Positions 44,008-63,029 of a stretch of 64,000 nucleotides of DNA are shown here, piece after piece. How positions within the stretch are numbered: the stretch's first letter is position 1; each line of letters begins with the position of its first letter. The position numbers and the translations under genes were made by a program. Source of the DNA: Candidatus Xenobia bacterium (GTDB lineage: Bacteria > Vulcanimicrobiota > Xenobia > Xenobiales > QWHO01). The notes below the pieces were generated by a model. That model did no database searches and was not told the DNA's origin. It was given only the letters and a program-made list of their open reading frames with translations. The stretch spans positions 72,767 to 136,766 of the forward strand of contig BTUM01000008.1 of assembly GCA_045863235.1 (NCBI GenBank). The letters run 5' to 3'.

Positions 44008-44178
44008 ACTTGCACCCCTCAAAGGGTAGTCTCTGGTGTAGCTGGCAAGCTCGCTGCACGCTTACTTGCGGTGTTGGCCTAATTGGTTCGGGCCGGCTCT
44101 TGAATTTCCTTCCAGGCCAGAAGAAAAAGCCCGACGATCCGCGCTCTGGGTTTCTTGGAGCGGGCCCGCGACTCCTCG

Positions 44179-46201: not shown

Positions 46202-47467
46202 TTATTTCTTCCGCCGCCGAATTCGAGTGCGGTGACCCAGCAGCCGAATCAAGTGCTCGCGGCCCCCCTCACCAAAGCCATCGAAGACCAACCCGCAGCC
46301 TTCTCCAACCCGTGACCAGACCACGTGGCCCACCGCCCGCACGGGCGGGTCGAAGCCCATAGTGACCTCCAGGCTGTCCCCCACCCGCAGGTCTACGTCA
46401 GGAATGGCCATTCCCCCGGCGGAGACTTCGGCGATGCGGTGCAGGACCTGGCCTGTAGGCGAGCCCAGCGACACTCCGACGGTCAGCCCCAGGCGCGGGA
46501 AGTTGCGCCGTTCCTCTCCCAGGAACTCGGACTGAAGACTGACCCGGTTTCGCCCCGCCGATTTGGCACGATAGAGGGCTTCGTCAGCCCTTGCGAGCAG
46601 CCAGTTGATCACCTCTTCGTCGCCCGGGGAGTGACCCCAATCATCGTTGCTCGGGCGAGACTGATACCAGGACACCCCGATGCTCACGGTGACTTTTTCC
46701 TGCCGGCACTCTCGCTCCACCGCCCGACGCAGCTTTTCGGCAACCTGGGCGGCACCATTGGGGCTGGTGGAAGGCAAGATGACCACGAACTCCTCTCCCC
46801 CAAATCGAGCCACGACGTCGCCCTTTCGGGTCATCGAGTAGATCAGCGAGGCGACGTCGCGCAGGATTCGATCGCCTTCAAGATGGCCCAAACGGTCATT
46901 GACGGCCTTGAAGTGGTCCACGTCCAGCATCAGGCAAGCCAGAACCGGGGGACCTGGGCGAGAGAAACGCGACACGTGCTGACGCATCGACTCGAACAAA
47001 TAGCGACGCGAAAAGACTCCAGTCAGCTCGTCGCGCACCATGCGATCACGCAGGGCGATATGGCTGCGATAAATGGTCAACTGGGCCCCGATGCGTGCTG
47101 TGAGCAGCGCCGGCGAGCAAGGCTCGACCACGAAATCGTTGGCGCCGGCCTCCAATCCCTGAATCAAAGCCTCCTCGGACAGAGGTCGGGGACTGTAGAA
47201 GATGGTCGGAACGTGAACCAGGCTTTCATCCTGGCGCAACTTTCGACAGGCATCCGGTCCCAGTTGGCTGCTGAGCACGAAGAGCAGGGGGAACCAGGTC
47301 TGCGCCAGGCTCAAAGCTCGAGCGACGGTGGGCGCCCCCTCGACCTCAAAGCCCATGGCGACCAGCTGGCCTTTCAGGGGATCCAACCCCGGGCCAACCA
47401 GCAGCAGACGAGCGGGATGCTCGACCAGCATTGATACCACACTGGGCTTGGCGGTAGCGTTCTTCAC
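46202..47467 (-). CDS. Diguanylate cyclase: degenerate REC + GGDEF + PilZ
   Basis: DELTG, DVDHFKAVND..GH..GD, I-site RKGD, RFGGEEF; C-terminal ERRNFPR...EVSAGG; start may be 47431. Confidence 0.9.
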   Translation of the reverse strand: MKNATAKPSVVSMLVEHPARLLLVGPGLDPLKGQLVAMGFEVEGAPTVARALSLAQTWFPLLFVLSSQLGPDACRKLRQDESLVHVPTIFYSPRPLSEEALIQGLEAGANDFVVEPCSPALLTARIGAQLTIYRSHIALRDRMVRDELTGVFSRRYLFESMRQHVSRFSRPGPPVLACLMLDVDHFKAVNDRLGHLEGDRILRDVASLIYSMTRKGDVVARFGGEEFVVILPSTSPNGAAQVAEKLRRAVERECRQEKVTVSIGVSWYQSRPSNDDWGHSPGDEEVINWLLARADEALYRAKSAGRNRVSLQSEFLGEERRNFPRLGLTVGVSLGSPTGQVLHRIAEVSAGGMAIPDVDLRVGDSLEVTMGFDPPVRAVGHVVWSRVGEGCGLVFDGFGEGGREHLIRLLGHRTRIRRRKK

Positions 47468-47472
47468 ACTGC

Positions 47473-48567
47473 TTGATTCTGGCCCCGGTGAGGGGGAGTC
47501 CTCTTCAGCCCGGAGAGGGTCTCCGCCCGAGCCCGCGAAGCCGCTCGTTGGTGTTCTGGACCAAGAAACCTCGTATCGGCCTCGACCTGGGCAGCTATGC
47601 CCTCAAATGCTGTGTTCTCGACAGCAAAAGACAGTCGTGCTCGATCTGGAGTGAGGTGCTGTTGCCGAACCGCGAGTCCAGGGAGGACCGGCTCGAGGGC
47701 GAGGAGTTGCAGAGCCGGGTGCAGGCCATCTTGAAGGTTTGCGAGCAGCGCAGCAGTCACTGGTCGCGCCATGTCAACCTGTCGCTCGAGGACCCGGGCT
47801 GCGTGGGAGGCTACCTCGCGCTTCCGCCCCTGGCCCCGCAGGAGCTTCAAACTGCCATTCCGTCCGCCATCGCCAAGCAGATCCCCTACCCGCTCTCCGA
47901 GGTGGAGCTCTTCAACATGCGAGTGCCGGTCTTGAAGGGCAAAGGCGGCACGGGGATCTTCTTCGTGGCGGTTCCGCGAGGGCCCATGCAGGCGAGAGTC
48001 GCACTGCTCACCTCCCTGGGTCTGGAGGTCAAGTCAGCCGAGCCGGCCCTGCTGGCCCTGATCCGGGCTCTGGTGCGCAACCACGGCGACCTGACCGAGC
48101 CTATGGCGGTTGTGGTAGCCGGCCACTCGCTCACCAGCGTATTCGTGCTGCTGCAGGGCGTGCCTTACTTCGCGCGCGATTTCCGGCTGGGCGGCGCCGA
48201 CTTCACCTACGCCTTCCAGATGGCCGTGCAGGTCAGTTGGCAACGGGCTGAGGAGCTCAAACACAAAAGTGATCTGCGCCAGGAACGCAGCTATCATCTC
48301 GAGCCCTTCCTGGTGCGGTGGATGGACGAAGTCAAACGCTCGCTTGACCAGGCCCGGAAACAGGACGAGGCGCTCGCAGTCGGCCGCCTGCTGCTGACCG
48401 GTGGAACGGCCGCATTTATGGGCCTCGAAAGCCGCCTGCAGGAGCACCTGGGGCTGCCCGTCAGCACGGACGCCTGGAATCGCGTGCGGCACAGCTCGAT
48501 TGCGGCTGAGGTCGATGACTCGCTGGTTCATTACGATCTGGCGCTCGGACTGGCTCTGCACGAATGA
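47473..48567 (+). CDS. pilM: Type IV pilus assembly protein PilM-like
   Basis: IGLDLGSYALK, QIPYPLSEV, GGADFT, AEELK, LLTGGTA, ALGLAL; true start probably near 47548-47551. Confidence 0.8.
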   Translation: MILAPVRGSPLQPGEGLRPSPRSRSLVFWTKKPRIGLDLGSYALKCCVLDSKRQSCSIWSEVLLPNRESREDRLEGEELQSRVQAILKVCEQRSSHWSRHVNLSLEDPGCVGGYLALPPLAPQELQTAIPSAIAKQIPYPLSEVELFNMRVPVLKGKGGTGIFFVAVPRGPMQARVALLTSLGLEVKSAEPALLALIRALVRNHGDLTEPMAVVVAGHSLTSVFVLLQGVPYFARDFRLGGADFTYAFQMAVQVSWQRAEELKHKSDLRQERSYHLEPFLVRWMDEVKRSLDQARKQDEALAVGRLLLTGGTAAFMGLESRLQEHLGLPVSTDAWNRVRHSSIAAEVDDSLVHYDLALGLALHE

Positions 48568-50207
48568 GCGACTGGCTGGAGTGCCTGGATTCGGTCCCTA
48601 CCGAAGCTCTCGAGGAGGCGCGCCGCTCGGGCACCCCCTACCGCTGCCTGCTCGATGCAGGCCTGGCCACGGTCGGGCAGCTCCAGGTGGCCCGCTCGCG
48701 CTACTACAAGGTTCCCTCCCTGGAGCTAAGCCGCTACGTGCCCCATCCCGATTCGGTGGGCCTGCTGAGCGAGGAGCAGGCTCGCAAGCTGAAGGTTCTC
48801 CCTCTCTTCCAGGTCAAGGACCACCTCTACCTGGCCATTTCCGATCCGGAAGACCTGCGCACCCAGGATTTCGTAGCCAAACTGACGGGCATGGTGGTAG
48901 AGCCGGTGCTGGTCCTGCCCGAGGAGCTCGAGCAGGCCCTCAATCGCTGGTTGCTGACCGCCGACCGCGCCGGTCAGTTCATTCAGGAGATCGCTTCTGC
49001 CGCCCAGCCCCGCGCGGTGGACGGCAGCACCGAGGCGGGCCTGCTCGAGGACCGCGAAGCGCCCATCATCAAGCTGGTCGACCACATGCTCAGCCAGGCC
49101 ATCCGCCTGGGGGCCAGCGACGTGCACCTGGAGGCCTTCGAAACCCGCACCCTCTTGCGCTATCGCATCGACGGCGTGCTGCACGAGTACCCTTCGCCCC
49201 CCAAGAGCATCTACGCCGGGGTCGTCTCGCGCATCAAGATCACGTCCGGCCTGGACATCTCCGAGCGCCGTCTGCCCCAGGACGGGCGCAGTTCGCTGGT
49301 CGTGGACGGGCGCAAGTACGACCTGCGCGTCTCGGTCATCCCCAACCTGCACGGCGAGGGGGTGGTGATCCGCATCCTCAACCCCTACGCCCTCAAGCTC
49401 GACCTGGAGGCGCTGGGTTTCTCCCGGCAGTTGCTGGAGCGCTACGAGCGCCTCATCTCCAAGCCCTACGGCATCGTGCTGGTAACCGGGCCCACCGGCT
49501 CGGGCAAGTCCACCACCCTCTACTCCACCCTCAAGCGCGTCACCACGCTGGAGAAGAAGGTCATCACCCTGGAAGACCCCGTCGAGTACCAGCTCGAGGG
49601 CGTGACCCAGATCCAGATCCAGCCGGAGATCGGTTACACCTTCGCTTCCGGGCTCAAGGCCATCTTGCGCCACGACCCCGACATCGTGCTGGTGGGCGAG
49701 ATGCGCGACCTGGAGTCGTCTGAGATCGCCATTCGAGCCGCCCTGACCGGCCACCAGCTGTACTCCACCCTGCATACCAACAATGCTCCCCAGGCCATCA
49801 CGCGCCTGGTCGACATGGGGGTGGCTCCCTACCAGGTCATGGCCTCGCTCAACGGAGTGCTGGCCCAGCGCCTGGTTCGGCGGCTGTGCGACCGCTGTAA
49901 GGTGGTGGACGAGCGCCCCTGCACGCACGAGGGGCTGGAAGTCTCACCCGGAGCCACCCTGTATCGCCCCGGCGGCTGCACCGAATGCCATCAACTCGGC
50001 TACAAAGGTCGGGTGGCCGTGTACGAGCTGCTCGAGCTGACCCCCTCCATTCGGGCCATGGACGTGGCCCGGATCACGCCCGAGGCCATCGTGGCTCTGG
50101 CCCGTCAGGACAACAGCTTCCTCTCCATGGCTCGAAATGCCGGCGAGAAGCTGGAGCAGGGAATTACCAGTTTGGAAGAAGCTCTCACCATCGTGATGGA
50201 GGACTGA
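48564..50207 (+). CDS. pilB: Type IV pilus/T2SS assembly ATPase PilB/GspE
   Basis: ASDVHLE, LDISERRLPQDG, GPTGSGKST, TLEDPVE, LRHDPD, GEMRD, TGH.LYSTLHTN, CxxC...CxxC. Confidence 0.93.
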   Translation: MSDWLECLDSVPTEALEEARRSGTPYRCLLDAGLATVGQLQVARSRYYKVPSLELSRYVPHPDSVGLLSEEQARKLKVLPLFQVKDHLYLAISDPEDLRTQDFVAKLTGMVVEPVLVLPEELEQALNRWLLTADRAGQFIQEIASAAQPRAVDGSTEAGLLEDREAPIIKLVDHMLSQAIRLGASDVHLEAFETRTLLRYRIDGVLHEYPSPPKSIYAGVVSRIKITSGLDISERRLPQDGRSSLVVDGRKYDLRVSVIPNLHGEGVVIRILNPYALKLDLEALGFSRQLLERYERLISKPYGIVLVTGPTGSGKSTTLYSTLKRVTTLEKKVITLEDPVEYQLEGVTQIQIQPEIGYTFASGLKAILRHDPDIVLVGEMRDLESSEIAIRAALTGHQLYSTLHTNNAPQAITRLVDMGVAPYQVMASLNGVLAQRLVRRLCDRCKVVDERPCTHEGLEVSPGATLYRPGGCTECHQLGYKGRVAVYELLELTPSIRAMDVARITPEAIVALARQDNSFLSMARNAGEKLEQGITSLEEALTIVMED

Positions 50208-51418
50208 TGCCCCGCTTTCGCTATGCAGCTGTCGACAAGGAAGGCCAGGTGCACAAAGGCACTCTGGAGGCGTCCGATCAAGGCGCCGCCCTGAACACTC
50301 TGTCCTCTCACTATGAGATGGTCACCACCCTCAAGGAGGCCGGGGCGGGGGGGCTGGCGATGATGGTGCGCCGGTTTCTGGGTCAGCGGGTCAAGACCGA
50401 GGACCTGCTCGGCTTCACCCAGGAGCTGGCAGCCGTGGTGGGAGCGGGCGTGACCCTGAAGGCGGGACTCGATCTCCTCTCGGAGGACACTCACAACCCC
50501 AAGTTGCAGCAGATCGTGGAGAAGGTTTCCCGCCACGTAGAAGGGGGCGGCACCCTCTCCGAGGCCATGCGCGAGCATCCGGAAGCCTTTCCGCGCTACT
50601 ACTCCAGCCTGGTGGCCGCGGGGGAAACCTCGGGCACGCTGGCCGTGGTGCTCGACCGCCTGGCCCACCAGATCGAGAACTCGGAGATTCTGGCCGCCAA
50701 GGTTCGGGGCGCATTCTATTACCCCGGGATCATCCTGGCCTTTTCGGCCCTGCTCAGCTTCGTCATCATGACGGTGGGCATGCCCATGCTGGAGGGAATC
50801 TACAGCTCACTGGGTGGCACCTTGCCATGGCCTACCCGTTTCATGATCTCGATCAGCCATCTCCTGGGTAAGACCTGGTTCCTGTGGGCCCTGGTCGTCC
50901 CGGGCGGAATCTGGTTCATCGTAAAAACCCTCAACACCGACAAGGGCAGCCTGTGGTTCGACCGCTGGAAGCTCAGCCTGCCTGTGCTGGGAGAGCTCTT
51001 CAGGCACCTGGCTATCGCCCGTTTTGCTCGCAACTTCTCCACCGTGTTCTCGGCCGGCCTGGGCATGATCGACTCGCTGGAGCTGATCTCCACCACCACT
51101 GGCAGTCGCGTCCTCGAGCAAGCTGTCAAGGAGGCCATCGAGCCGATCACCCAGGGCCAGGGCCTGTCGCAGTGTCTGCGTGCCTCGGGTTTCTTCACCC
51201 CGCTCACGCTCGGCCTCTTGCGCTCGGGTGAGGCCACCGGGACCATGGACGTCATGCTGACCAAGATCGCTGACTTTTATGAGACCCGGGTCGAGCTTGC
51301 CCTCAAGGCACTGAGCTCGCTGGTGGAGCCGATCCTGATGATCTTCGTGGGCATCGCGCTGGGCGGGCTCATCGTGTGCATGGGGCTGCCCTTCCTGAAC
51401 CTCTCGGCGGCTTTCTAG
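50207..51418 (+). CDS. pilC: Type IV pilus/T2SS platform protein PilC/GspF
   Basis: MPRFRYAA start overlapping pilB stop (TGATG); AGETSGTL, YYP, GEATGTMD, LVEP. Confidence 0.92.
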   Translation: MPRFRYAAVDKEGQVHKGTLEASDQGAALNTLSSHYEMVTTLKEAGAGGLAMMVRRFLGQRVKTEDLLGFTQELAAVVGAGVTLKAGLDLLSEDTHNPKLQQIVEKVSRHVEGGGTLSEAMREHPEAFPRYYSSLVAAGETSGTLAVVLDRLAHQIENSEILAAKVRGAFYYPGIILAFSALLSFVIMTVGMPMLEGIYSSLGGTLPWPTRFMISISHLLGKTWFLWALVVPGGIWFIVKTLNTDKGSLWFDRWKLSLPVLGELFRHLAIARFARNFSTVFSAGLGMIDSLELISTTTGSRVLEQAVKEAIEPITQGQGLSQCLRASGFFTPLTLGLLRSGEATGTMDVMLTKIADFYETRVELALKALSSLVEPILMIFVGIALGGLIVCMGLPFLNLSAAF

Positions 51419-51422
51419 CCCG

Positions 51423-51818
51423 ATGAAGCGCATCTACGTCACCGAGGATTCGCCCACCCAGGCCCTGCGGGTGGGCAAGATCCTCCAGCTCATTCCCGAT
51501 TGCCAGGTGCGTTTCTTCAACGATGGCCTGGCGGCTTACCAGGAGGTGCTGCTCAACCCGCCCGACCTGCTGCTGCTCGATCTGATCCTGCCCAGCCTCC
51601 ATGGCTTGGCGGTGGCCCGTCTGCTCAAGTACCACGAGGACTACCAGCACATCCCCATCCTGATCTTCAGCTCCATCACCGAGCAGAGTCTGGCCGACTC
51701 GGTGGGGGTTTCGGGGGCCAACTCTTTCCTGCGAAAGCCTTTCGAGGCCGAAGACTTGCTCTACGAAGTACGCCGTCTGCTCGAGCTGCCCCAGGAGGCC
51801 GCCTCTCAGGGGAGCTGA
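51423..51818 (+). CDS. Single-domain response regulator (CheY-like)
   Basis: TEDS, LLDLILP, FSS, KPF. Confidence 0.88.
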   Translation: MKRIYVTEDSPTQALRVGKILQLIPDCQVRFFNDGLAAYQEVLLNPPDLLLLDLILPSLHGLAVARLLKYHEDYQHIPILIFSSITEQSLADSVGVSGANSFLRKPFEAEDLLYEVRRLLELPQEAASQGS

Positions 51819-52337
51819 TCAGCGCACGGCAACGGCCAGTTGCAGCAGCTTGGAGCTGGCTTTCAGCCCGGCGGCGTCGAGGGCCTTGGAGTTGATCGCG
51901 AAGCGAACCCGGTTGCGCTCGGTCACGAGGCCGATGGCGCCGCCCTTTTCGGTGAAGCCGGGAATGTCGCTGATGGTCAGCACGGAGAGGCCCTTCAGCC
52001 CCGTCACGATGGCCTCCACCTTGGCAGCCTCGGTCTCGGCCACGAACACGGCGGCACAGCTCCGGGCATCGCCCACGCTCTTGAGGGGCACGACGGAGAC
52101 CTTCTTCCCTCGAACCGTCTTGGCTTCCAGAGCCTTCAGCTCGCCGCTGATGGCGTGCTCGCCGAGCACCCCGACGACCACGGTCTCTTTCTCGCTGGGC
52201 CACTCCACGAACTTGAGGAAGTTGAGCACGAAAGCGCTCTTGATCTGATACTCGCGCGGCTGCGCCACGGCAGGCACCAGCAACAGCGCCAACAGAACCA
52301 GGGCGGGCAGACGACGGCTCAGAAGGTCCAATTCCAC
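51819..52337 (-). CDS. YfiR/HmsC (DUF4154) family periplasmic protein
   Basis: EYQIKSAFVLNFLKFVEWP, VLTISD, RFAIN, SSKLLQLA. Confidence 0.9.
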   Translation of the reverse strand: MELDLLSRRLPALVLLALLLVPAVAQPREYQIKSAFVLNFLKFVEWPSEKETVVVGVLGEHAISGELKALEAKTVRGKKVSVVPLKSVGDARSCAAVFVAETEAAKVEAIVTGLKGLSVLTISDIPGFTEKGGAIGLVTERNRVRFAINSKALDAAGLKASSKLLQLAVAVR

Positions 52338-53386
52338 GCTCCACTCAACATCCAGCGTGTCCGTAACTGGGGTCCTGAGAGATTCTGGTAAATGGGCACG
52401 CCTCCTTCCACCGAGAAGCGATGACCATGGCCCTCGTCATCGACTCCCAGAGCGAAGTTCACGCCCAGCAATGCGTCCAGCCGGGTGCCGGCCTGCAAGG
52501 TGGGATCGGAGTTCGGGTTGGCGGCCGGATTGAGCTCCGGGTCCCGGCCCCGAACGTTTCCCCAGGTCGAGCCGCGCAGACGCACAGAGGGACTGAACGA
52601 ATCGCTGACCCGGGGAGAGACCCAGCCGGTCACGGACAAATTGTCCGGGGGAGACCATCCGCGCGAGTTGCGGTAGGGATGAACCAGCCCGCGCACCTGG
52701 CAGCCCCAGTTCATGCTGTCGGTGTTCCCCAGGTAGGTCACGGCCCCGATCAGGTCGACCGTGCCCGAGCCGAGTTGCATGGGATACTCCAGTAGCTGGT
52801 TGGGATTGGTGGGCGTTGGGTAGCGCACGTCGATCTGGCCGGTGGGAAAGCTCAGCCCGCCTTCGACCTGGATGCGATGCGGATAGTCGTCGAAGAGCGG
52901 AGTGATGGCCGTGAGGCTGATGTCTCCCAGTCCATCCGAGTAGGTGGTGAAGGACTGCCCGGCGCGGTTGAGGTGGGGCATCGACATGCTGGTGTAGGGG
53001 ATCATCAGGTTCAAGGTCACGTCGTCGGTGACGCCGTACATGACCATCAGCATCGTCATGTCCATCTGCATGGAGGTGTGGATGGTAGGGAACTGGCCCA
53101 GAACCTGGGCGTTGCTGACCGAGGTGGTGCCCACCAGGTTGCCGTCTTGCTCGAGGTGCATCTGGGACAGGCCCACCATCCAGTCGCCCTCCCAGTGCCA
53201 GTGGGCGCCAGGAACAGTGACCTGGACCACGTCCAGCATCATCAGCTGCTCCAGGTCGAGGTCCAGCAGGTCGTCCGACCCCTGGGCGTTCTGACTTCCC
53301 TTGCCGCAGGTGGCGCAACCCTGCTGGGCCGCACCAGGCACAGAGAGAAGCAGCAAACCGAGCAAGAAAGCGACGATGCCTTTCAC
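52319..53386 (-). CDS. Outer-membrane beta-barrel of the Met/His-rich 'transporter' type, with N-terminal DLDLEQLM motif
   Basis: Signal peptide; GLGDISL, GLSFPTG, YPMQLGSGTVD; terminal W-x-W-x-F. Confidence 0.75.
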   Translation of the reverse strand: MKGIVAFLLGLLLLSVPGAAQQGCATCGKGSQNAQGSDDLLDLDLEQLMMLDVVQVTVPGAHWHWEGDWMVGLSQMHLEQDGNLVGTTSVSNAQVLGQFPTIHTSMQMDMTMLMVMYGVTDDVTLNLMIPYTSMSMPHLNRAGQSFTTYSDGLGDISLTAITPLFDDYPHRIQVEGGLSFPTGQIDVRYPTPTNPNQLLEYPMQLGSGTVDLIGAVTYLGNTDSMNWGCQVRGLVHPYRNSRGWSPPDNLSVTGWVSPRVSDSFSPSVRLRGSTWGNVRGRDPELNPAANPNSDPTLQAGTRLDALLGVNFALGVDDEGHGHRFSVEGGVPIYQNLSGPQLRTRWMLSGAWNWTF

Positions 53387-53490
53387 AGCGAGCCGCGATT
53401 CTGCCGCTCGAGGACAGGTTCCTGCCGTCCGGAAGGTCAACGCCAGGGGTGAGAGAATCTCAGCCGACTTTCTCGCGAGGAGGAGCCGAG

Positions 53491-55119
53491 GTGTCTGAAA
53501 TCTGGCAACGAGCCACCGACTTTGCCTGTCAGGAGCTGGGCTGGGGCCGGGCCCTGGTGGTGGACGTGGTGCGCTCAGCCACCGGAGCGACCCTGCAACC
53601 GGTTCACGCGGTCGGACTCGACCCGGCCGCGGCCTGGCAAGACGAATCGGTCAACGACCTCATCGACGAGGCCTTCTCGGCCAAAGCCTTGCATCGCGCC
53701 GAAGGCTGCTGGTGCTTGCCGGTGCTCGATCACCGCGGTCGGGTAGCCCTGCTGCTGTACGCTGACCAGCCGGCCACCCCCCCGCCACCCGATCTTTCGG
53801 CCCGCCTGCTGGCCGGGGCCAGCGAGTTAAGCCTGGCGATCGGCCAGGTGGGCCCGAGCGAGGGCCAGGCACTGGGCCCGGGAGCCCAGGTGGCAGGACG
53901 CTACGTGGTGGATCAGCAGCTGCTCTCATGCCGCTTCTCCACCCTCTACAGGGCACACGACCGGGCCACCGGCAGCTCGCTGGTGCTGCGCCACCTGGAA
54001 GACCCGGACAAGAGCCGCGAGGCGCGGCTGCAGACTCTGCGCGAGGGGCGCACGCTGCACCGCCTGCGCCACCGCAACCTGCCCCGCGTCCTGGACGTGG
54101 TCGAGGACCAGGGCCACATCTACGTTGTGCTCGAGGACGTCACCGGTATGACCTTACAGGCCACGGTGGAGAAAGAGGGCCCCCTGCAGCCCGAGCTGAT
54201 CCGCCGCTATCTCAAGCAGTTCCTGTCGGTGCTGGACTACTTGCACGGCCAGACGCCCCCCATCGTGCACCGCGACCTTCGTCCCGAGACGGTTCTGGTC
54301 AGCCGACACGGGGTGCTCAAAGTGGCCGAGTTCGGACTGGCCAAGCTGGGCCAGGAAAGCCAGGGCGGAGCTCGCACCGCCTTCAAAGCCCACGGGCATC
54401 CACGCTATGCCGCCCCGGAGCAGCTGCTGGGCGATACCAGCCATCCCCGCAACGACCTCTACGCGGTGGGGGCCATGCTCTACTTCCTGGCCACCGGCAC
54501 CGCCCCGCCCGAGGCGATGAAGCGCTTCAGTTCCAACAGCCCTCTGCCTTCGCCCGGGCCTGAGTTTCCGGCCGACCTGGCCGCGACCATCGACAAGCTG
54601 ACCACGGCCGACTCCAAAGCGCGCCCGCAGTCAGTGACCGAGGTGCTGCAGTGGCTATCGGCCGGGCCGACCCTGCCGGCCGCCGCGGTGGAGGAGATCT
54701 CCGTGCCGGAGAGCCTGGCCGCTTTGCCCGAGCAGCCCGCCCCGGCGGTGCCCCGCAAGCCGTCCATGTGGCAACTCCTCTTCGGCAAGAAGAAGGCTGC
54801 CGGGCCATCGGCCCAGGCCCGGGTGCCCCGGGTCGACCTGGCCAGGATGGACTTCGAGCGCGAGGTGGGGCGACTGTTGCCGGAAACCGTCTCGCGCGCC
54901 ATCGGCGGCGTGGCGGTGCGGCGCATCGGAGCCTCGGAGATCACCGTGGCCGTCAAGGACCCCTCCGACCCGCAGATCTACGACGCCATCAGCTGCGGAA
55001 CCCGGGGCCTTTATACGCCCACCGTGGTGGCGGCCGACCCCGAGCTGATCGACCGGGCCCAGGAGTTCATCTATCGCAGCGAGTTCGGCAGCTGGGTGCG
55101 CTTCTTGCAGCCCGCTTAA
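53491..55119 (+). CDS. GAF-like + Ser/Thr pseudokinase + PilB/GspE N-terminal-like domain
   Basis: HRDLRPETV, AEFG, YAAPEQ, DLYAVG; C-terminal LLPETVSR...VAVKDPSD; SD GGAGGAG. Confidence 0.8.
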   Translation: MSEIWQRATDFACQELGWGRALVVDVVRSATGATLQPVHAVGLDPAAAWQDESVNDLIDEAFSAKALHRAEGCWCLPVLDHRGRVALLLYADQPATPPPPDLSARLLAGASELSLAIGQVGPSEGQALGPGAQVAGRYVVDQQLLSCRFSTLYRAHDRATGSSLVLRHLEDPDKSREARLQTLREGRTLHRLRHRNLPRVLDVVEDQGHIYVVLEDVTGMTLQATVEKEGPLQPELIRRYLKQFLSVLDYLHGQTPPIVHRDLRPETVLVSRHGVLKVAEFGLAKLGQESQGGARTAFKAHGHPRYAAPEQLLGDTSHPRNDLYAVGAMLYFLATGTAPPEAMKRFSSNSPLPSPGPEFPADLAATIDKLTTADSKARPQSVTEVLQWLSAGPTLPAAAVEEISVPESLAALPEQPAPAVPRKPSMWQLLFGKKKAAGPSAQARVPRVDLARMDFEREVGRLLPETVSRAIGGVAVRRIGASEITVAVKDPSDPQIYDAISCGTRGLYTPTVVAADPELIDRAQEFIYRSEFGSWVRFLQPA

Positions 55120-55121
55120 AG

Positions 55122-56096
55122 TTAGCGGTAAAGACGCGCCAACTTGCCCGAGTCGATCAGCCCGCTGAGGGCGTCGATGGTCTCGGGGTGATGGCGGGAG
55201 ATGCGCTCGGCATAGAAGGCGCGCGTGTTCTCCTGATAGTCTTCATGGCGGTGCAGGCTGAAATAGCGGTCCACATCCTCGGCCATGGCCAGCACCCAGG
55301 CCTCGATGGGCGTGTTGCTGCCGGGCTCGAAGACGTCATGGTGGGCCGCCACGAGCGGCGCCAGGTGGCGGAGAGCCCCGGTGCTCACCAGAAACTCGGC
55401 TCCCACCCTCGAATGCTCGCGCAGCACCTCGTCGAAGGGTTGCCCGGCCAGCAAGAGACAGCCGATATCGTGGTAAAACGAGGCGTCCCAGACCTCCTGA
55501 CGAGACTGGGCCGAGAGATCGAGCATGCTGGCCAGCTTGGTCGACAACCGGGCCACCCGCTCGACATGGCCTGGGCCTTCGGGCACTATGCGGTCGGTGG
55601 CCCCCACCAACAGGTCCAGGGTGCCCGACAGGAGCGACTGCTCCTCTTCCCGGGCCTTGACCATCTCATGCACCAGCCCTACAAGCACCCCCAGCTCTCT
55701 GAGCAGCTCGAGATCACCCCCGGTAGCTTTCAAGACCCCCACCAGCGAACCGAATCGGGTCACCGGGAAAGCCCGCTCCTGGCCTTCGGCCAGCTCCTCG
55801 CAATAGAGCGCGCAGCGGCCAACCAGCGAAGACTCGTCCACCGGTGTGCGACGCAAGATGGGGGAATCGACCTCCTCGCGGTTCTGGGGCACCACCCCCT
55901 CGAGCACCCGGGTCTGCTCGCACTGACCGGGCCGCACCAGCACGTTCTGAGAGAAGCGATAGAGAAAAAAACGGCTCTCAGAGGCCTGCACCCTGAGGGC
56001 CGATTCCTCCACCGCGGCCACGAACTGAGGCATGGTCCGGCTCAGGGAGAGCTCTCCCAGGTAGTGCAGCCAGTCGAGGCGGGTGGTGGTGGCCAT
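55122..56096 (-). CDS. GAF-like + degenerate HD-GYP domain protein (paralogue A)
   Basis: GHVERVA, YHDIG, EHSRVG, AHHD; no GYP loop. Confidence 0.8.
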   Translation of the reverse strand: MATTTRLDWLHYLGELSLSRTMPQFVAAVEESALRVQASESRFFLYRFSQNVLVRPGQCEQTRVLEGVVPQNREEVDSPILRRTPVDESSLVGRCALYCEELAEGQERAFPVTRFGSLVGVLKATGGDLELLRELGVLVGLVHEMVKAREEEQSLLSGTLDLLVGATDRIVPEGPGHVERVARLSTKLASMLDLSAQSRQEVWDASFYHDIGCLLLAGQPFDEVLREHSRVGAEFLVSTGALRHLAPLVAAHHDVFEPGSNTPIEAWVLAMAEDVDRYFSLHRHEDYQENTRAFYAERISRHHPETIDALSGLIDSGKLARLYR

Positions 56097-56184
56097 TGGA
56101 GGCTGCTAGCTACGCTCAGGCAGCCGGGTGCTCCTGCCCGAGGGAAGGAGCGGCTCGACCCGGACGAGAAAGTCGCCGCTTCCC

Positions 56185-57078
56185 ATGGCGACGAGCGAGC
56201 ACATACTGGATTGGCCCCGTTTGCTGGGCGAGCTGTCGCTCAACCGCACCGCGGCCCAGTTCACCGAAACGGTGGAGAGGCTGGCTCAGGAGCTGGGGGC
56301 CCGGGAGGTCCGCTTCCACCTGTACGAAATGGATGCCGCCCAGCTGGTGCGCGGCCACGAGCGGTTGAAAGTGGACCCCTCTACCTTGCAGGGGACCTGC
56401 GCCCTTTACTGCGAGCCGGTGGAGACGCCCGAGGGAAGCGCCTGGCCGGTGACCCGCTTCGGCTCGCTGATCGGGGTGCTGAGCGCCGCCCAGGGACGGC
56501 TGGGAGAGCTGGCCGGAGCAGCCGGGCTGATGTTCGAGCCAGTGCGTATCCGCGAGGAGGCGGCCACCTGCCTGGCCGCTCTGCAGGGTCTGTTGACCGC
56601 CGCCGTGGATCGAGTTGCGCCGGGCAGCACCGGCCACGTGGCCCGGGTGGCCCGCCTGGCCCTGGAGCTCGGCTCCATGCTCGACCTCTCCCCCCAGGCC
56701 CGCCAGGACCTGTGGGACGCGGCCCACTTCCACGACGTGGGCTGGCTGCTGCTGCAGCACCAGTCTTATGAGGAGCAGCTAGCCGGCCACAGCGAGGCAG
56801 GGGCGGGCTTTCTGGAGCAGACCGAAGCCCTGCGCCTGCTCTCACCCCTGGTCGAGAATCACCACCAGACCTACCCGGCCAGCAAGCCCGTGGCCATGGA
56901 AGCCTGGATCCTGGCCCTGGCCGAGGAACTGGACGAGCTCTTCAGCGAGCACCCCGGCCCTCTGGAGGAGAAAACCCGCGACTTCTACTCCAGCCACGCT
57001 GGCAAGCACAATCCCGAGGTGGTGGACGCGCTCAGCTCTCTGATCGACTCGGGCCGGCTGCAAGAGCTCTACAGCTGA
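56185..57078 (+). CDS. GAF-like + degenerate HD-GYP domain protein (paralogue B)
   Basis: GHVARVA, FHDVG, GHSEAG, NHHQ; no GYP loop; collinear with paralogue A. Confidence 0.8.
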   Translation: MATSEHILDWPRLLGELSLNRTAAQFTETVERLAQELGAREVRFHLYEMDAAQLVRGHERLKVDPSTLQGTCALYCEPVETPEGSAWPVTRFGSLIGVLSAAQGRLGELAGAAGLMFEPVRIREEAATCLAALQGLLTAAVDRVAPGSTGHVARVARLALELGSMLDLSPQARQDLWDAAHFHDVGWLLLQHQSYEEQLAGHSEAGAGFLEQTEALRLLSPLVENHHQTYPASKPVAMEAWILALAEELDELFSEHPGPLEEKTRDFYSSHAGKHNPEVVDALSSLIDSGRLQELYS

Positions 57079-57079
57079 C

Positions 57080-59794
57080 GTGAAACGCTTCCGCGACCTC
57101 TCCATCTCGCGCAAGCTGGTCTTGTTCGCGCTGCTGGTCGCCAGCCTGGCCCTGGCTCTCTCTAGCCTGGCCTACGCCATTTACAGCCACTTCAGCGTGC
57201 GCGGCACCCTGGCCGAGAACACCCGCACCCTGGCCGAGGTGGTGGGCAAGAACTGCCAACCGATGCTCATGTTCGGGGAGGGCTATGAGAAGGAGGCCCA
57301 GGAAGTGCTCGGCTCGCTGCGGGCCAAGGGCGCGGTCACCTGGGCTGGTGTCTATACCAGGCCGCCTGAGGTCAAGGTCTACGCCACCTACCGTCGGTTG
57401 GACGTGGACGCTTCCGAGATCCCCAGCGCCCCGCCTCCGGTGGGATTCGTCAACGGGCGCTATCGGGCCACGACCCGGATCACCGAGCCGGGGGGCGAAC
57501 CGGTGGGAACCCTGGTGGTGGAGACCGACCTGACGGAGTACTGGAAGCAGATCACGACCTCGACCCTGGTCTCGCTCTTGATCTTCGTGCTCACCTCCCT
57601 GGTCGCAACCCTGGTGGCCATCCGCTTGCAGGGCGTGATCTCCGGCCCGATCCTGAGCCTGGCCGAGACCGCCCGTCAGGTCAGCGCCCAGCACAACTAT
57701 TCGCTGCGGGCCGTCAAGCAGGGCAACGACGAGACCGGATTCCTGATCGACTCGTTCAACTCCATGCTGAGCCAGATCGAGGTGGTCAACGCCGAGCTGG
57801 CAGTGGCCCGCGATCACGCCCTGGAGGCATCCAGCGCCAAGAGCAGCTTCCTGGCCAACATGTCGCACGAGATCCGCACCCCCATGAACGGCATCATCGG
57901 GCTGACCCGGCTGGCCCTGCAGAGCGAGCTGACCCCGGTGCAGCGCGAGTATCTGAGCATGGTCTCGCGCTCGGCCGACACCCTGCTGCAGATCCTCAAC
58001 GACATCCTGGACTTCTCCAAGATCGAAGCCGGCATGCTGGACTTCGACCCCCACCCCTTCTCTATCCGCGAGCTGATCAGCACGGTGGCCAAGCTGATGG
58101 CCGTGCGGGCCCACGAGAAGGGGCTGGAGCTGGTCACCGAGGTGGACCCGCGCCTGCGCCCCACCATCGTCAGCGACTCCACCCGCCTGCAGCAGGTTCT
58201 GCTCAACCTGGTGGGCAACGCCGTCAAGTTCACCGAGCAGGGCGAGGTGGTCATCCGGGTCAAGCTGGAGGAGGAGACAAAGGACGAGGTTCGTCTGCAC
58301 CTGACTGTCTCGGATACCGGGGTAGGCATTCCCAAGGACAAGATCGACTCTATCTTCGCCGCCTTCGCCCAGGCCGACGTTTCCACCACCCGCAAGTACG
58401 GCGGCACCGGACTGGGCCTTTCTATCACCGTCAAGCTGGTCGAGATGATGGGCGGCAAGATCTGGGCCGAGAGCGAGCCGGGCAAGGGCTCCACCTTCCA
58501 CTTCACGCTCAAGGCCGGCATCAGTGAGGAGACCCCGGTGGAGGTCTCGGCCGAGCCCCTCAAGGGCCTGCGCCTGCTGGTCGTGGACGACAACGCCACC
58601 AACCTGCGGGTGATGATGGATCTCTTGCGCGGCTGGCAGGCCCGGCCGGTGGCCGCCAAGAGCGGGCCCGAGGCTCTCGAGGCCATGCGACTGGCGGTGC
58701 GCCAGAACGAGCCCTTCGACCTGGTGCTGCTGGACATGCACATGCCCGAGATGGACGGCCTGGAGCTGGCCCACGAGATTCACCTCGACGAGAAGCTGTC
58801 GGCCTCGGTCGTCATGATGCTGAACTCGTCCAACCTCAAGGGCGACGCCGAGCGGGGCCGGGCCGAGGGGATCGTGGCCACCATGACCAAGCCGGTCAGC
58901 GAGAACGAGCTGCTGCGCGCCATGGCCACCCATCTGCGGGGCCGCACCGGCAAGACCGGCCAGTTGGGCCCGGCCCCGGTGGTCCGCACCGACCAGCCAG
59001 CCCTGCACGTGCTGCTGGCCGAGGACAACAAGGTCAACCAGACCCTGGCCATCATCACCCTCGAGCAGATGGGCCACAGCGTGAAGGTGGCCAGCAACGG
59101 GCGCGAGGCCATCGAGCTCTACGGCAACGAGCCGTTCGACCTCATCTTGATGGACCTGCAGATGCCCGATATGGACGGATTTCAGGCCGTGGCCGCCATC
59201 CGCGAGTCGGAGCAGGGAGGCTCCCAGCGCATCCCCATCATCGCCCTCACCGCCCATGCCCTCAAGGGCGACCGCGAGCGATGCCTGGCCTCGGGGATGA
59301 CGGGCTACGTGTCCAAGCCGCTCGACCCGGAGCTGCTCGCCAAAGAGATTGCCGTGGTCACCCAGGGCAAGGTACTGGTCGGGGCCCAACCGGCTCAAGA
59401 GCGGGCGGCTGAGCCGGAGGTCGTGGCAGCGGCAGAGCTCGGGCCAGCGTCGGCCGCCGTGAGCATCGACCGGGACGCGTTCTTGAAGCGCTGCGCCAAC
59501 AACTGGAAGCTGGCCGAAACGCTGATCGGTCAGTTCCGCGACACCCGCGGCCAGATGGCCGCCGAGCTGGTGAAGGCGGTGGAGGCGGGCGACGGGGCCG
59601 CGGCCGCCCGGGCGGCTCACGCCATCAAGGGCGTGGTGGCGGTGTTCGGCGCCGACGACCTGGTGGCCGCTGCCAAACGGGTGGAGGAGCTGGGCAAGGC
59701 CGGCGATCTCGGCGAGCTGAAGGGCGTGGCGGACGGCCTGCTGGCCGACTGCGAGGGCCTGGTCGGGGTGCTGGAGCGGCTCACGCCGCCCTGA
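57080..59794 (+). CDS. Hybrid sensor histidine kinase (periplasmic sensor-HAMP-HisKA-HATPase-REC-REC-HPt)
   Basis: MSHEIRTPMN, NLVGNAVKFT, GGTGLGL, LLDMHMP, LMDLQMP, HPt AHAIKG. Confidence 0.95.
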   Translation: MKRFRDLSISRKLVLFALLVASLALALSSLAYAIYSHFSVRGTLAENTRTLAEVVGKNCQPMLMFGEGYEKEAQEVLGSLRAKGAVTWAGVYTRPPEVKVYATYRRLDVDASEIPSAPPPVGFVNGRYRATTRITEPGGEPVGTLVVETDLTEYWKQITTSTLVSLLIFVLTSLVATLVAIRLQGVISGPILSLAETARQVSAQHNYSLRAVKQGNDETGFLIDSFNSMLSQIEVVNAELAVARDHALEASSAKSSFLANMSHEIRTPMNGIIGLTRLALQSELTPVQREYLSMVSRSADTLLQILNDILDFSKIEAGMLDFDPHPFSIRELISTVAKLMAVRAHEKGLELVTEVDPRLRPTIVSDSTRLQQVLLNLVGNAVKFTEQGEVVIRVKLEEETKDEVRLHLTVSDTGVGIPKDKIDSIFAAFAQADVSTTRKYGGTGLGLSITVKLVEMMGGKIWAESEPGKGSTFHFTLKAGISEETPVEVSAEPLKGLRLLVVDDNATNLRVMMDLLRGWQARPVAAKSGPEALEAMRLAVRQNEPFDLVLLDMHMPEMDGLELAHEIHLDEKLSASVVMMLNSSNLKGDAERGRAEGIVATMTKPVSENELLRAMATHLRGRTGKTGQLGPAPVVRTDQPALHVLLAEDNKVNQTLAIITLEQMGHSVKVASNGREAIELYGNEPFDLILMDLQMPDMDGFQAVAAIRESEQGGSQRIPIIALTAHALKGDRERCLASGMTGYVSKPLDPELLAKEIAVVTQGKVLVGAQPAQERAAEPEVVAAAELGPASAAVSIDRDAFLKRCANNWKLAETLIGQFRDTRGQMAAELVKAVEAGDGAAAARAAHAIKGVVAVFGADDLVAAAKRVEELGKAGDLGELKGVADGLLADCEGLVGVLERLTPP

Positions 59795-61778: not shown

Positions 61779-63029
61779 TCAGGCTGCGCTCAATTGATCA
61801 AGGTCTGGCGTGCCGCGCAGGTCGGACAGGTACTGCCCCTCAATTCCTCCGGTAAACTCGCCGCCGGTGCGCCAGAAGCGGTCCTGGCCCCAGGCATCCT
61901 GGCCCAGATAGATGACGTTCCAGCCCTGATTCTCGCTGGTGGTGTCGCCGGGGTTCTCGAAATAGCGCAGCTCGCCCGGTTGCAGGCGGTCGCTGGTCGG
62001 GTCGAAGGCCCCCAGCTCGGGCCCGGCCCCATAATCGACCGAGGGGCCCGCGCTGATGCGCCAGGCGCCGCTGTCCTGGTTGCCATCCACGCTGTCGTAG
62101 TGACCGAACAAGAACAGGTCGGAATGGGACTGGCTGAACGTATCGGCGCCCACCGTATCGAGCTCGGCCTTCAGTCCGACGGCTCGCACGGCGGTGGCGC
62201 AGTCGAAGGCGTAGTTCTGGCGGTTGACAAAGAGGTCCTGGACGGCCCGAGTGGGGTCGGCGCCCGGCTTGAGCTCGAGCACGCTGTGCTGCTGCCCGTC
62301 CAGCTCTCGGGTGCCCATCTGCCAGGAATCGCTCGGCCCCAGCAAGCGCGGGGTGGGGCTGGACTCGAAGGCCCAGCCATCCCCTGCCTCTTCGGCTGCT
62401 CGCACCACGTTGGCGCGATACTGCTGATCCAGGCTTGCAGGCGTGGAGTCGGGCACGATTGGGCCGGGCTCGGCCGGGCCCGCGACCGGAGGAGCCGGTG
62501 TGGGTCGCTCGGCGGGCGGAGTCACGGGGGGACGCTCGGCCGGGCCCGCAACCGGAGGAGCCGGCGTGGGTCGCTCGGCGGGCGGAGTCACGGGCGGACG
62601 CTCGGCCGGGCCCGCGACCGGAGGAGCCGGCGTGGGTCGCTCGGCGGGCGGAGTCACGGGGGGACGCTCGGCCGGGCCCGCGACCGGAGGAGCCGGCGTG
62701 GGTCGCTCGGAGGGTGGACACTTGGCGGAGGCGGGCTTGCTCGGCCCCTGCATGGTGGCATGAGAGCCCTGCCCGCGGGGGCAGAGTCCCTCCAGCCAGG
62801 ACAGGCGCGGGCACTCTTCCCCTCCCTGATGGCTTTCTTGCCGGCCCGCCAGCCGGGCGAAGAGCTGCCCAAGCCGGTCGGCCAGCATCAAGCGCAGGTC
62901 CGGGCCCCGCTGCCCGCCATGCCAATTTCGCTCACAGGATGGGGCGTTGTGTCTCGAGCCATACCGCCGGGCTCGTTCGGTCTCGCCCCCTCGGGCCGGG
63001 GAAAAATCCATCCAGCTCAGGCCGCGCAT
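61779..63029 (-). CDS. Pro-rich repeat protein with C-terminal Tgl-like (protein-glutamine gamma-glutamyltransferase) domain
   Basis: AVQDLF....YAFDCATA, PGELRYFENP, QGWNVIYLG resemble Bacillus Tgl motifs; SD GAGGAGG. Confidence 0.7.
   Translation of the reverse strand: MRGLSWMDFSPARGGETERARRYGSRHNAPSCERNWHGGQRGPDLRLMLADRLGQLFARLAGRQESHQGGEECPRLSWLEGLCPRGQGSHATMQGPSKPASAKCPPSERPTPAPPVAGPAERPPVTPPAERPTPAPPVAGPAERPPVTPPAERPTPAPPVAGPAERPPVTPPAERPTPAPPVAGPAEPGPIVPDSTPASLDQQYRANVVRAAEEAGDGWAFESSPTPRLLGPSDSWQMGTRELDGQQHSVLELKPGADPTRAVQDLFVNRQNYAFDCATAVRAVGLKAELDTVGADTFSQSHSDLFLFGHYDSVDGNQDSGAWRISAGPSVDYGAGPELGAFDPTSDRLQPGELRYFENPGDTTSENQGWNVIYLGQDAWGQDRFWRTGGEFTGGIEGQYLSDLRGTPDLDQLSAA
62468..62710. 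repeat. 66-bp coding tandem repeat, about 3.7 copies (PAERPTPAPPVAGPAERPPVTP)
   Basis: Units start at 62468, 62534, 62600 and 62666. Confidence 0.95.

Follow-up and report, generated by a model that had tools for sequence, protein, structure and literature searches.

A motor-less member of a pseudokinase-fused family of PilB-like ATPases in Candidatus Xenobia, with a possible adaptor or competitor role at a type IV filament or secretion platform

Introduction

How the motors of type IV pili and type II secretion systems are switched on and positioned is still open, and the N1 domain is regarded as the least understood part of the extension motors (PMC11656802, in excerpt). In PilB and GspE motors this domain is taken to make the contact to the PilM/GspL-type stator, as seen in the EpsE-EpsL and GspE-GspL structures 2BH1 and 4PHT (PMC11656802, in excerpt). 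Here we analysed a whole stretch of 64,000 nucleotides of a Candidatus Xenobia genome, hereafter the window, which holds at 53491..55119 a gene whose product ends in such an N1 domain, has a degenerate kinase domain in front of it, and lacks the motor ATPase. An original prediction, made from the letters of the window, had read this gene as a pseudokinase fused to a copy of the PilB N-terminal domain, next to a pilM-pilB-pilC operon, and had proposed that it competes with PilB for PilM. The organism is uncultured, and all that we say about function is inferred.

Several described systems come close to this arrangement. First, Supplementary Table 4 of Wang et al. 2016 (PMC5013675) lists the architectures GAF-MshEN-T2SSE and REC-MshEN-T2SSE, several ATPase-less MshEN proteins and one Pkinase-MshEN-UNK-REC protein of Stigmatella, and the main text names Ser/Thr kinases among the partner domains of MshEN; thus, a kinase beside MshEN is not new in itself. 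The motor-bearing relatives of the window protein, hereafter long forms, resemble these sensor-fused PilB/GspE/MshE/PilF ATPases in having N1 and an intact T2SSE domain with a sensor module in front, many of them beside a T2SSF gene. They differ in that the front module is GAF-like plus pseudokinase, an architecture missing from Supplementary Table 4, and in having no MshEN_N motif in the five long forms examined; the window protein, a short form, differs further in having no ATPase at all. Second, the ATPase-less proteins PA3740 of P. aeruginosa (MshEN_N plus a diverged N1) and FrgA of M. xanthus (MshEN-UNK-HEAT) likewise carry N1/MshEN outside a motor ATPase, and PKN11 of Stigmatella aurantiaca (Pkinase-MshEN-UNK-REC), compared here by its listed architecture, combines MshEN with a Ser/Thr kinase domain (PMC5013675). 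Unlike these, the window protein has a degenerate kinase, ends on its N1 with no REC or other domain behind it, and derives from a motor family. Third, PilZ and FimX of Xanthomonas and Pseudomonas regulate the pilus motor at its N-terminal domain and its docking (PMC11656802, in excerpt; structure 7lko). Those proteins bind N1, whereas the window protein carries an N1 of its own and would act on whatever binds N1, a mode not described in the excerpt of PMC11656802 used here.

Conserved loss of the VAIK Lys is also a feature of the pseudokinases in an atlas of bacterial Ser/Thr kinases (CP1, DYD, ActPs1-3, DLHK and GLW; bioRxiv 10.1101/2025.01.12.632604, in excerpt), of which ActPs2 has Arg at this position as well. 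The HRD Asp, which the family described here retains, is variable in six of the seven atlas families, and in four of these six the variation extends to nearly all members. The words pilus, secretion, T2SS, GAF and PilB do not occur in the main text of that preprint, which is the part covered. Our full-text literature search returned no description of a kinase or pseudokinase before a complete PilB-type motor, of a conserved pseudokinase in that place, or of a motor-less derivative. In one source, both parts of a long form already carry names from automatic annotation, so that these sequences are in the databases yet apparently undescribed.

We give an even chance to the reading that the window protein belongs, without a motor of its own, to a lineage-restricted family of PilB-like ATPases fused to pseudokinases, and that it acts without catalysis, as an adaptor or a competitor, at the platform of a type IV filament or secretion system. 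The evidence for this reading, and for the alternatives to it, is presented below.

Results

The open reading frame runs from 53449 to 55119 on the forward strand, where an in-frame GTG at 53449 gives a protein of 556 amino acids (P0001, whose residue numbering is used throughout) and a second GTG at 53491 gives one of 542. The latter is the better start, since a Shine-Dalgarno-like run, GAGGAGGAG, ends 5 nt upstream of it and the N-termini of close homologues coincide with it, so that the gene boundaries originally predicted hold. The gene ends 2 nt before a convergent gene. An AlphaFold2 (AF2) model of P0001, built on a 16-row alignment, had a mean predicted local distance difference test score (pLDDT) of 77 and resolved an alpha/beta domain (residues 15-133), a bilobal kinase fold (147-405), a disordered stretch (407-458) and a compact C-terminal domain (460-553). 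The features of the gene are the following.

53491..55119, + strand: motor-less gene for a GAF-like/pseudokinase/N1 protein (open reading frame, Shine-Dalgarno-like run, homologues, substitution rates)
53491..53847, + strand: N-terminal GAF-like domain, residues 15-133 (AF2 and homology to the long form of the same genome)
53887..54663, + strand: kinase fold with degenerate catalytic motifs, a predicted pseudokinase, residues 147-405 (Pfam Pkinase, alignment with 4eqm, AF2)
54664..54822, + strand: disordered linker, residues 406-458 (AF2 pLDDT, substitution rates)
54763-54795, + strand: SMWQLLFGKKK linker motif, residues 439-449 (alignment of long and short forms)
54823..55107, + strand: C-terminal domain of the T2SSE_N1/GSPII type (Pfam MshEN), residues 459-553 (Pfam, AF2, Foldseek)

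Pfam GAF has no match on P0001 at E <= 1. However, the long form encoded elsewhere in the same genome is homologous to the window protein over query residues 4-554, and its N-terminus matches Pfam GAF with 30.4 bits against a cut-off of 22.4; for this reason residues 15-133, whose block-mean pLDDT is mostly 81-91 with a dip to 74, are called GAF-like. The linker has pLDDT values under 50 over residues 407-458, except for a short helix at 440-444. This helix lies within SMWQLLFGKKK, a motif common to long and short forms, in which W441 is present in 16 of 17 members and which we take to resemble amphipathic membrane-targeting or peptide-docking motifs. No Pfam match to the T2SSE ATPase domain is present in P0001.

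The C-terminal domain was assigned by profile and by predicted fold. Pfam MshEN (PF05157, formerly T2SSE_N) matches residues 458-545 over profile positions 2-87 of 90, with 27.4 bits against a cut-off of 23.1. Modelled alone (AF2, 16-row alignment), the N1 domain reached a pLDDT of 90.5, and the best 20 matches listed by Foldseek against the PDB were all N-terminal domains of MshE, PilF-GSPII, PilB-N or XpsE-N, among them 5htl (TM-score over the query, TMq, 0.73; E 8e-6), 6ejf (0.71), 7lko (0.65) and 2d28 (0.60). Both results agree with the original assignment to the GspE/PilB N1 type. Its wording as a copy of the PilB N-terminal domain is correct at the level of the domain family and does not hold for the PilB encoded in the window. 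When the short-form N1 was compared by BLASTP with the 12 other MshEN matches in the genome, the closest was the N1 of the long form on contig C22 (44.6% identity, E 2.5e-27), and the local PilB N1 ranked sixth (24.5% identity, E 0.007). In a MAFFT alignment, the window N1 is 57% identical to the N1 of the short form of genome G054, 31-48% to those of the long forms, with 42-48% for most of them, and 21% to that of the local PilB. Thus, a recent duplication of the local PilB N-terminus was rejected, as 21-24% identity stands against 42-48% to the long-form domains, and by sequence the window N1 belongs to another lineage than that of the local PilB.

A role as receptor of cyclic di-GMP (c-di-GMP) was also rejected. 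The domain is the alpha/beta N1 subdomain alone, without the four-helix module of MshEN_N, and the stretch before it is disordered in the model. A relaxed form of the 24-residue MshEN_N motif, RLGxx(L/V/I)(L/V/I)xxG(L/V/I)(L/V/I)xxxxLxxxLxxQ in tandem (Methods of PMC5013675), had no match in P0001, the local PilB or five long forms, and 20 matches in the six-frame translation of the genome look like chance. Five further MshEN matches of the genome (C75:25625-25873, C37:66680-66928, C67:40152-40400, C89:13724-13930 and C75:27967-28152) lie in open frames of 397-1350 amino acids that are not among the strong T2SSE matches, the one on C67 with an HD-type match about 1 kb away; re-use of N1 seems widespread in this genome.

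The kinase domain matches Pfam Pkinase over residues 156-356 (E 1.7e-34) and, by phmmer, PknB/StkP structures (E about 2e-24). Aligned with the solved PknB-type structure 4eqm, the four deviant motifs named in the original prediction are all present and fall on catalytic positions. First, LSCRFSTLY stands at the Gly loop, with LSCRFS aligned to GGGGMS. Second, Arg181, within LVLRHL, occupies the position of the VAIK Lys. Third, the catalytic loop reads HRDLRPET where 4eqm has HRDIKPQN, that is, with Arg for Lys and Thr for Asn. Fourth, EFG replaces DFG. We then surveyed these positions in 17 genome-derived members of the family. All 17 have Arg for the VAIK Lys and Thr or Ser for the catalytic Asn, the DFG Asp is Glu in 16, and the catalytic-loop Lys is Arg in 15. 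The first Gly-loop position is L or M in every member and the second is C in 11 and G in six, while R162 and S164, both within the former Gly loop, are invariant. The HRD Asp is retained in 17/17, the alpha-C Glu and APE are retained in the window protein, and APE is found in nearly all members. Judged by these motifs, the kinase domain of the family shows a conserved pseudokinase pattern with a re-purposed pocket, and the pseudokinase reading is supported as a profile that extends across the 17 members.

It could be argued that the domain is an atypical but active kinase, in which Arg at the VAIK position and Glu at the DFG position still allow nucleotide binding or phosphotransfer onto a pilus or signalling component. 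The retained HRD Asp, alpha-C Glu and APE would fit such an enzyme, as would the fact that the substitutions keep the charge, and some kinases without the VAIK Lys do bind ATP (bioRxiv 10.1101/2025.01.12.632604, discussion, in excerpt). However, four catalytic elements are altered together and conserved in that state (Gly loop, Lys to Arg, Asn to Thr or Ser, and Asp to Glu), Gly is missing from the first Gly-loop position in all 17 members and from the second in 11 of them, and the newly invariant R162 and S164 in its place point to a changed function. We therefore regard an active kinase as quite improbable.

The relatives of the window protein were sought among 5.8 billion proteins. The ATPase-less layout was found in six clusters with 58-93% identity to the window protein, five of 499-543 amino acids and one a partial record of 409. 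About ten clusters of 855-930 amino acids combine Pkinase and MshEN with the full T2SSE ATPase, under the source names Candidatus Eremiobacterota or Candidatus Xenobia. In a HMMER search over 1.84 billion representatives, the best 150 matches listed contained a dozen or so family-like clusters, two of them without ATPase, followed by unrelated kinases. Long forms, of about 860-1250 amino acids, come from a few families of Candidatus Eremiobacterota. They share with the window protein the degenerate kinase, SMWQLLFGKKK and N1, and continue into a PilB/GspE ATPase in which Walker A (GPTGSGKST), Walker B, the His box and the cysteine motifs are all intact. The genome of the window (8.36 Mb, 97.6% complete) has one of them, at C22:26119-29082, with 987 amino acids and the domains GAF (30.4 bits), Pkinase, MshEN and T2SSE. 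The long form of genome G060 (L059:5820-9563, 1247 amino acids) has an extra MshEN domain at residues 66-151, before the kinase (65.9 bits), and hence two domains of the N1 type.

We surveyed the distribution of the family in 401 genomes sampled from the phylum, with a threshold of E <= 1e-50, which 21 of them passed. By family, the matches were as follows.

Family f1, that of the organism itself: 3 of 4 genomes, besides its own
Family f3: 15 of 16 genomes
Family f5: 1 of 1 genome
Family f7: 1 of 1 genome
Family f2: 0 of 19 genomes
Family f15: 0 of 297 genomes

Among the 401 genomes, the short form was found in genus g1 alone, namely in four of its five genomes (G000, G106, G046 and G054); none was found in the fifth, which is 64% complete. 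Each of the four short-form genomes also has exactly one long form. In a maximum-likelihood tree of the kinase, linker and N1 (17 rows, midpoint root), the four short forms group together with support of 100/99. A 98/98 split places them on the same side as G092a and G092b, the two long forms of G092, and as the long forms of G060 and G066. Genus g1's own long forms cluster instead with those of G068, G074, G050 and G096, apart from the g1 short forms. Since the short form and the long form of its own genome thus fall in different groups, the short form is not a recent duplicate of the latter, and this possibility was rejected. By its placement in this tree, the short form represents in g1 a second, old lineage of long forms and has lost its ATPase there.

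Loss of a whole domain relative to its relatives could also mean that a long-form gene is decaying here and that what is left of it serves no function. Several results speak against this, and we consider it very improbable. First, four genomes share the open frame and its end point, at 61-93% identity, and the further copies of 499-543 amino acids come from other assemblies. Second, the overall ratio of nonsynonymous to synonymous substitution rates (dN/dS, Nei-Gojobori), taken against two close orthologues, is 0.13 and 0.18. For the single domains, these same comparisons gave 0.01-0.08 for N1, 0.10-0.18 for the GAF-like domain and kinase, and the highest values, 0.47-0.64, for the linker; against G054 the ratio is 0.3-0.5, with dS near saturation. 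As judged from these ratios, the short form is under purifying selection, which is strongest in N1. Third, contigs of four RNA libraries (X2, X8, X11 and X13) contain pieces identical to the gene, for instance 54139-54798 with 0 differences. Since the depth at the gene is 2-9, like that of all its neighbours, and carry-over of DNA is possible, these pieces are a weak hint of transcription. A scan of 53200-55400 for promoters and terminators gave no promoter-like site and one terminator-like site within the gene, no more than in shuffled sequences.

The surroundings of the short form bear on its partner. The genes between 46202 and 59794 are the following.

46202-47467, - strand: REC(weak)-GGDEF-PilZ protein, divergent from pilM (Pfam)
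47551..48567, + strand: pilM-like gene, 338 amino acids (Pfam PilM_2 86.7 bits; NCBIfam pilM 108.8 bits, under its cut-off of 133)
48564..50207, + strand: pilB/gspE-type ATPase, 547 amino acids, with N1 at residues 48-133 and intact Walker A (Pfam T2SSE 8.4e-129, MshEN 61.4 bits; NCBIfam)
50207..51418, + strand: pilC/gspF-type platform protein (Pfam T2SSF 4.1e-55; NCBIfam)
51423..51818, + strand: single-domain response regulator (REC), last gene of the pilMBC string (Pfam Response_reg 5.1e-17)
51819-52337, - strand: YfiR/HmsC-like periplasmic protein (DUF4154, E 1.6e-40)
52319-53440, - strand: gene for 373 amino acids without Pfam match
55122..56096, - strand: HD1, 324 amino acids, GAF-like plus HD, without the DGxG[YF]P loop, a degenerate HD-GYP (Pfam HD, motif alignment, synteny)
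56128..57078, + strand: HD2, a paralogue of HD1 (44-45% identity) with the same degeneracy (Pfam HD, motif alignment, synteny)
57080..59794, + strand: hybrid histidine kinase with HAMP, HisKA, HATPase, two REC and Hpt (Pfam, synteny)

The short form lies 2 kb downstream of the pilMBC string, so that the position given in the original prediction, next to a pilM-pilB-pilC operon, is right as far as distance goes. However, the REC gene and two genes of the opposite strand lie between, and genes of the opposite strand adjoin it on both flanks; it is a separate transcription unit, outside the pilMBC operon. Its constant neighbours are HD1 and HD2, in 4/4 genomes, and the hybrid histidine kinase, in 3/3 with DNA that reaches far enough, while pilB and pilC lie within about 6 kb in three of the four. 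In G106 the locus is fully syntenic with the window as far as the contig runs, which ends before the hybrid histidine kinase. In G054 the short form, HD1, HD2 and the kinase stand together in another order, with REC, pilC and pilB about 6 kb away. In G046 all four are present, the 3.9 kb of upstream sequence on the contig contain no pil gene, and an orthologue of the window PilB was not found at E <= 1e-150 in this genome, which is 90% complete, a result that does not show absence.

These data bear directly on the model of the original prediction, in which the short-form N1 would compete with the PilB 3.3 kb upstream for the adjacent PilM and so bring about a signal-controlled inhibition of that pilus. 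The model draws on the shared domain family and predicted fold of the two N1 domains, on the accepted contact of N1 with the stator in PilB/GspE (PMC11656802, in excerpt), and on the nearness of the genes: a pilM-pilB-pilC-REC string 2 kb upstream in the window and in G106, and the pilB, pilC and REC of G054. On the other side stand the low identity to the local PilB N1 and its sixth rank among the 12 other MshEN domains, the separate transcription unit between genes of the opposite strand, the situation in G046, and the fact that the conserved neighbours are HD1, HD2 and the hybrid kinase rather than pil genes. Moreover, the genome has three strong PilM matches (C8, C145 and C17) and about 40 T2SSF paralogues, and therefore many other possible targets. 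We rate this model lower, as a special case of the docking reading, and think it doubtful that the local PilM is the target. A candidate for a second PilM in the window, a weak PilM_2 match at 42754-44022, was rejected as FtsA. The T2SSF-like loci, about 40 separate ones in an 8.4-Mb genome and many of about 340 amino acids (tblastn with PilC-type queries), are an unusual expansion of platform paralogues.

We also examined the neighbourhoods of the long forms, namely 12 loci from 11 other genomes with three genes on each side, 80 proteins in all. A T2SSF platform gene lies within three genes of the long form in 9 of the 12, and a gene of 310-350 amino acids with GAF and HD(-GYP) domains is adjacent in six (five by Pfam HD/HD_5, one by BLAST); the usual order on one strand puts the long form first, then T2SSF, then HD. 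Both HD1 and HD2 are homologous to these HD proteins over their full length (29-39% identity, with 29-37% for HD1; E 1e-28 to 1e-59), and the best match of both is G092_HD (37-39% identity, E 1e-55 to 1e-59), which sits in the operon of the G092a long form, that is, of a long form on the short forms' side of the tree split. The linkage between the HD family and the pseudokinase family spans four families of the phylum. In the motif alignment, the HHERxDGxG[FS]P loop is kept in the HD copies of G002, G092 and G090 and in a third copy of the window's own genome, C66:21094-22071, whereas a gap of eight residues stands at the DGxG[YF]P loop in HD1 and HD2, and likewise in the G074, G050 and G096 copies. 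The HD motif itself is present in HD1 and HD2 (Pfam HD). Since both lack the loop, no enzymatic turnover of c-di-GMP is expected from them.

The other parts of this arrangement were located in the same genome. Its orthologue of the T2SSF linked to long forms (48-50% identity) lies at C66:22084-23319, where the third HD gene follows directly and no ATPase is adjacent, and its long form on C22 is adjoined by a T2SSF of 338 amino acids, a REC-BTAD regulator and a histidine kinase. Because the parts lie separately on C22, on C66 and in the window, an old three-gene module is, by gene content, scattered in genus g1: the long form on C22, the T2SSF with an intact HD-GYP-like gene on C66, and, in the window, the motor-less form alongside two degenerate HD genes.

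The constancy of HD1, HD2 and the hybrid kinase raises another possibility, namely that the short form is the scaffold of a c-di-GMP/two-component node with these proteins, and possibly with the REC-GGDEF-PilZ protein, in which N1 would be a mere protein-binding module, for instance for PilZ, with no contact to a motor platform. Besides synteny in the short-form genomes and the linkage across four families, the richness of the window in c-di-GMP parts (GGDEF-PilZ, YfiR-like and HD-GYP-like proteins), the solved PilB-N:PilZ complex (7lko) and the existence of MshEN domains in non-motor proteins (PMC5013675, Supplementary Table 4) are in its favour. However, the DGxG[YF]P loop is gone from both HD1 and HD2, and the window protein is without the MshEN_N motif for c-di-GMP binding. 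A machine-related role is also more economical, given that this module was ancestrally part of a motor protein encoded beside a platform gene. A signalling scaffold of this kind is therefore, in our view, unlikely, and an adaptor or competitor at a motor platform remains the preferred reading.

Other genes near the family may be mentioned. In G046, G054 and G066, the gene immediately next to a long form encodes a kinase with a high-scoring, canonical-looking Pkinase match and PEGA repeats (L054:8805-10730, L055:8542-11427 and L061:9858-12320), a kinase-domain match lies beside the long form of the window's own genome (C22:29332-29784), and the short form of G054 has a divergently oriented Pkinase-HisKA-HATPase-REC gene next to it. 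Pseudokinase and kinase may thus be paired. The sole pilin-like gene seen near any long form encodes a protein of 144 amino acids with a prepilin-type N-terminal methylation motif (L058:3236-3670, on C28 of G092), two genes from the second G092 long form.

Within the window, the REC-GGDEF-PilZ protein at the pilus cluster would be a diguanylate cyclase with a built-in PilZ domain. The YfiR-like gene overlaps the end of the gene for 373 amino acids, whose product has a signal-peptide-like start, ends in ...WNWTF and may be an outer-membrane barrel. Further downstream, 61779-63029 (- strand) encodes a TGL-type protein-glutamine gamma-glutamyltransferase with four PAERPTPAPPVAGPAERPPVTP-like repeats, and 63099-63998 (- strand) a protein with PNQPPANSAP/KANEPPANSAP repeats, the gene running off the contig end. 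An open reading frame of 410 amino acids at 38187-39419 (+ strand) had no Pfam match at E <= 1e-4.

Discussion

A conserved pseudokinase profile joined to an N1 domain of the GspE/PilB type makes a non-catalytic adaptor or decoy a reasonable reading of the window protein. Its N1 is under the strongest constraint of the whole protein and has no motor behind it, which is best explained if it is a docking module. Since N1 is taken to hold the PilB/GspE hexamer on a PilM/GspL-type ring, an N1 without motor would occupy the docking site. Docked there, the short form would either block engagement of the motor, as a competitor, or act as an adaptor that recruits the GAF-pseudokinase module, together with its HD-type partners, to the machine; the GAF-like domain would supply the signal input, and the pseudokinase would serve as scaffold or switch. 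Because the window N1 is of the long-form type, the likelier target would be the docking partner of a long-form motor, and not necessarily the PilM 5 kb upstream. The relationship of these domains argues for a partner shared with the pseudokinase-fused motors rather than with the neighbouring canonical PilB.

Several observations weigh against this proposal. First, none of the 12 long-form loci has a PilM/GspL-type gene within three genes (Pfam E <= 1e-5). Second, the long form of the same genome belongs to the other lineage, with 42% N1 identity in the MAFFT alignment, and the tree that separates the two lineages was midpoint-rooted, without outgroup, and has two long branches (G002 and G090). 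Third, N1 can bind other proteins, as PilB-N of X. citri binds PilZ (7lko, among the fold matches; PMC11656802, in excerpt), so that an interaction outside the pilus is possible. Fourth, the kinase keeps the HRD Asp and the alpha-C Glu, and Arg for Lys and Glu for Asp are conservative changes, which would leave room for residual nucleotide binding or atypical catalysis.

In its most specific form, which we offer as a tentative idea with a low chance of being right, some Eremiobacterota motors of type IV filaments or secretion would carry a built-in GAF-pseudokinase sensor, and one genus would have made from one such motor a motor-less N1 plug that competes for the docking site under signal control. 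If true, deletion of the engine would have yielded a natural dominant-negative regulator, and pili or secretion would be controlled in a way that has yet to be described.

The family adds to the short list of bacterial pseudokinases a lineage-specific one with a clear structural context. It puts a conserved, probably inactive kinase and a GAF-like sensor directly before the N1 of an otherwise intact motor, and it includes a natural derivative that keeps everything but the motor. The presence of a long and a short form in one genome is thus a natural test of what N1 binds, and of whether occupancy of that site regulates the machine.

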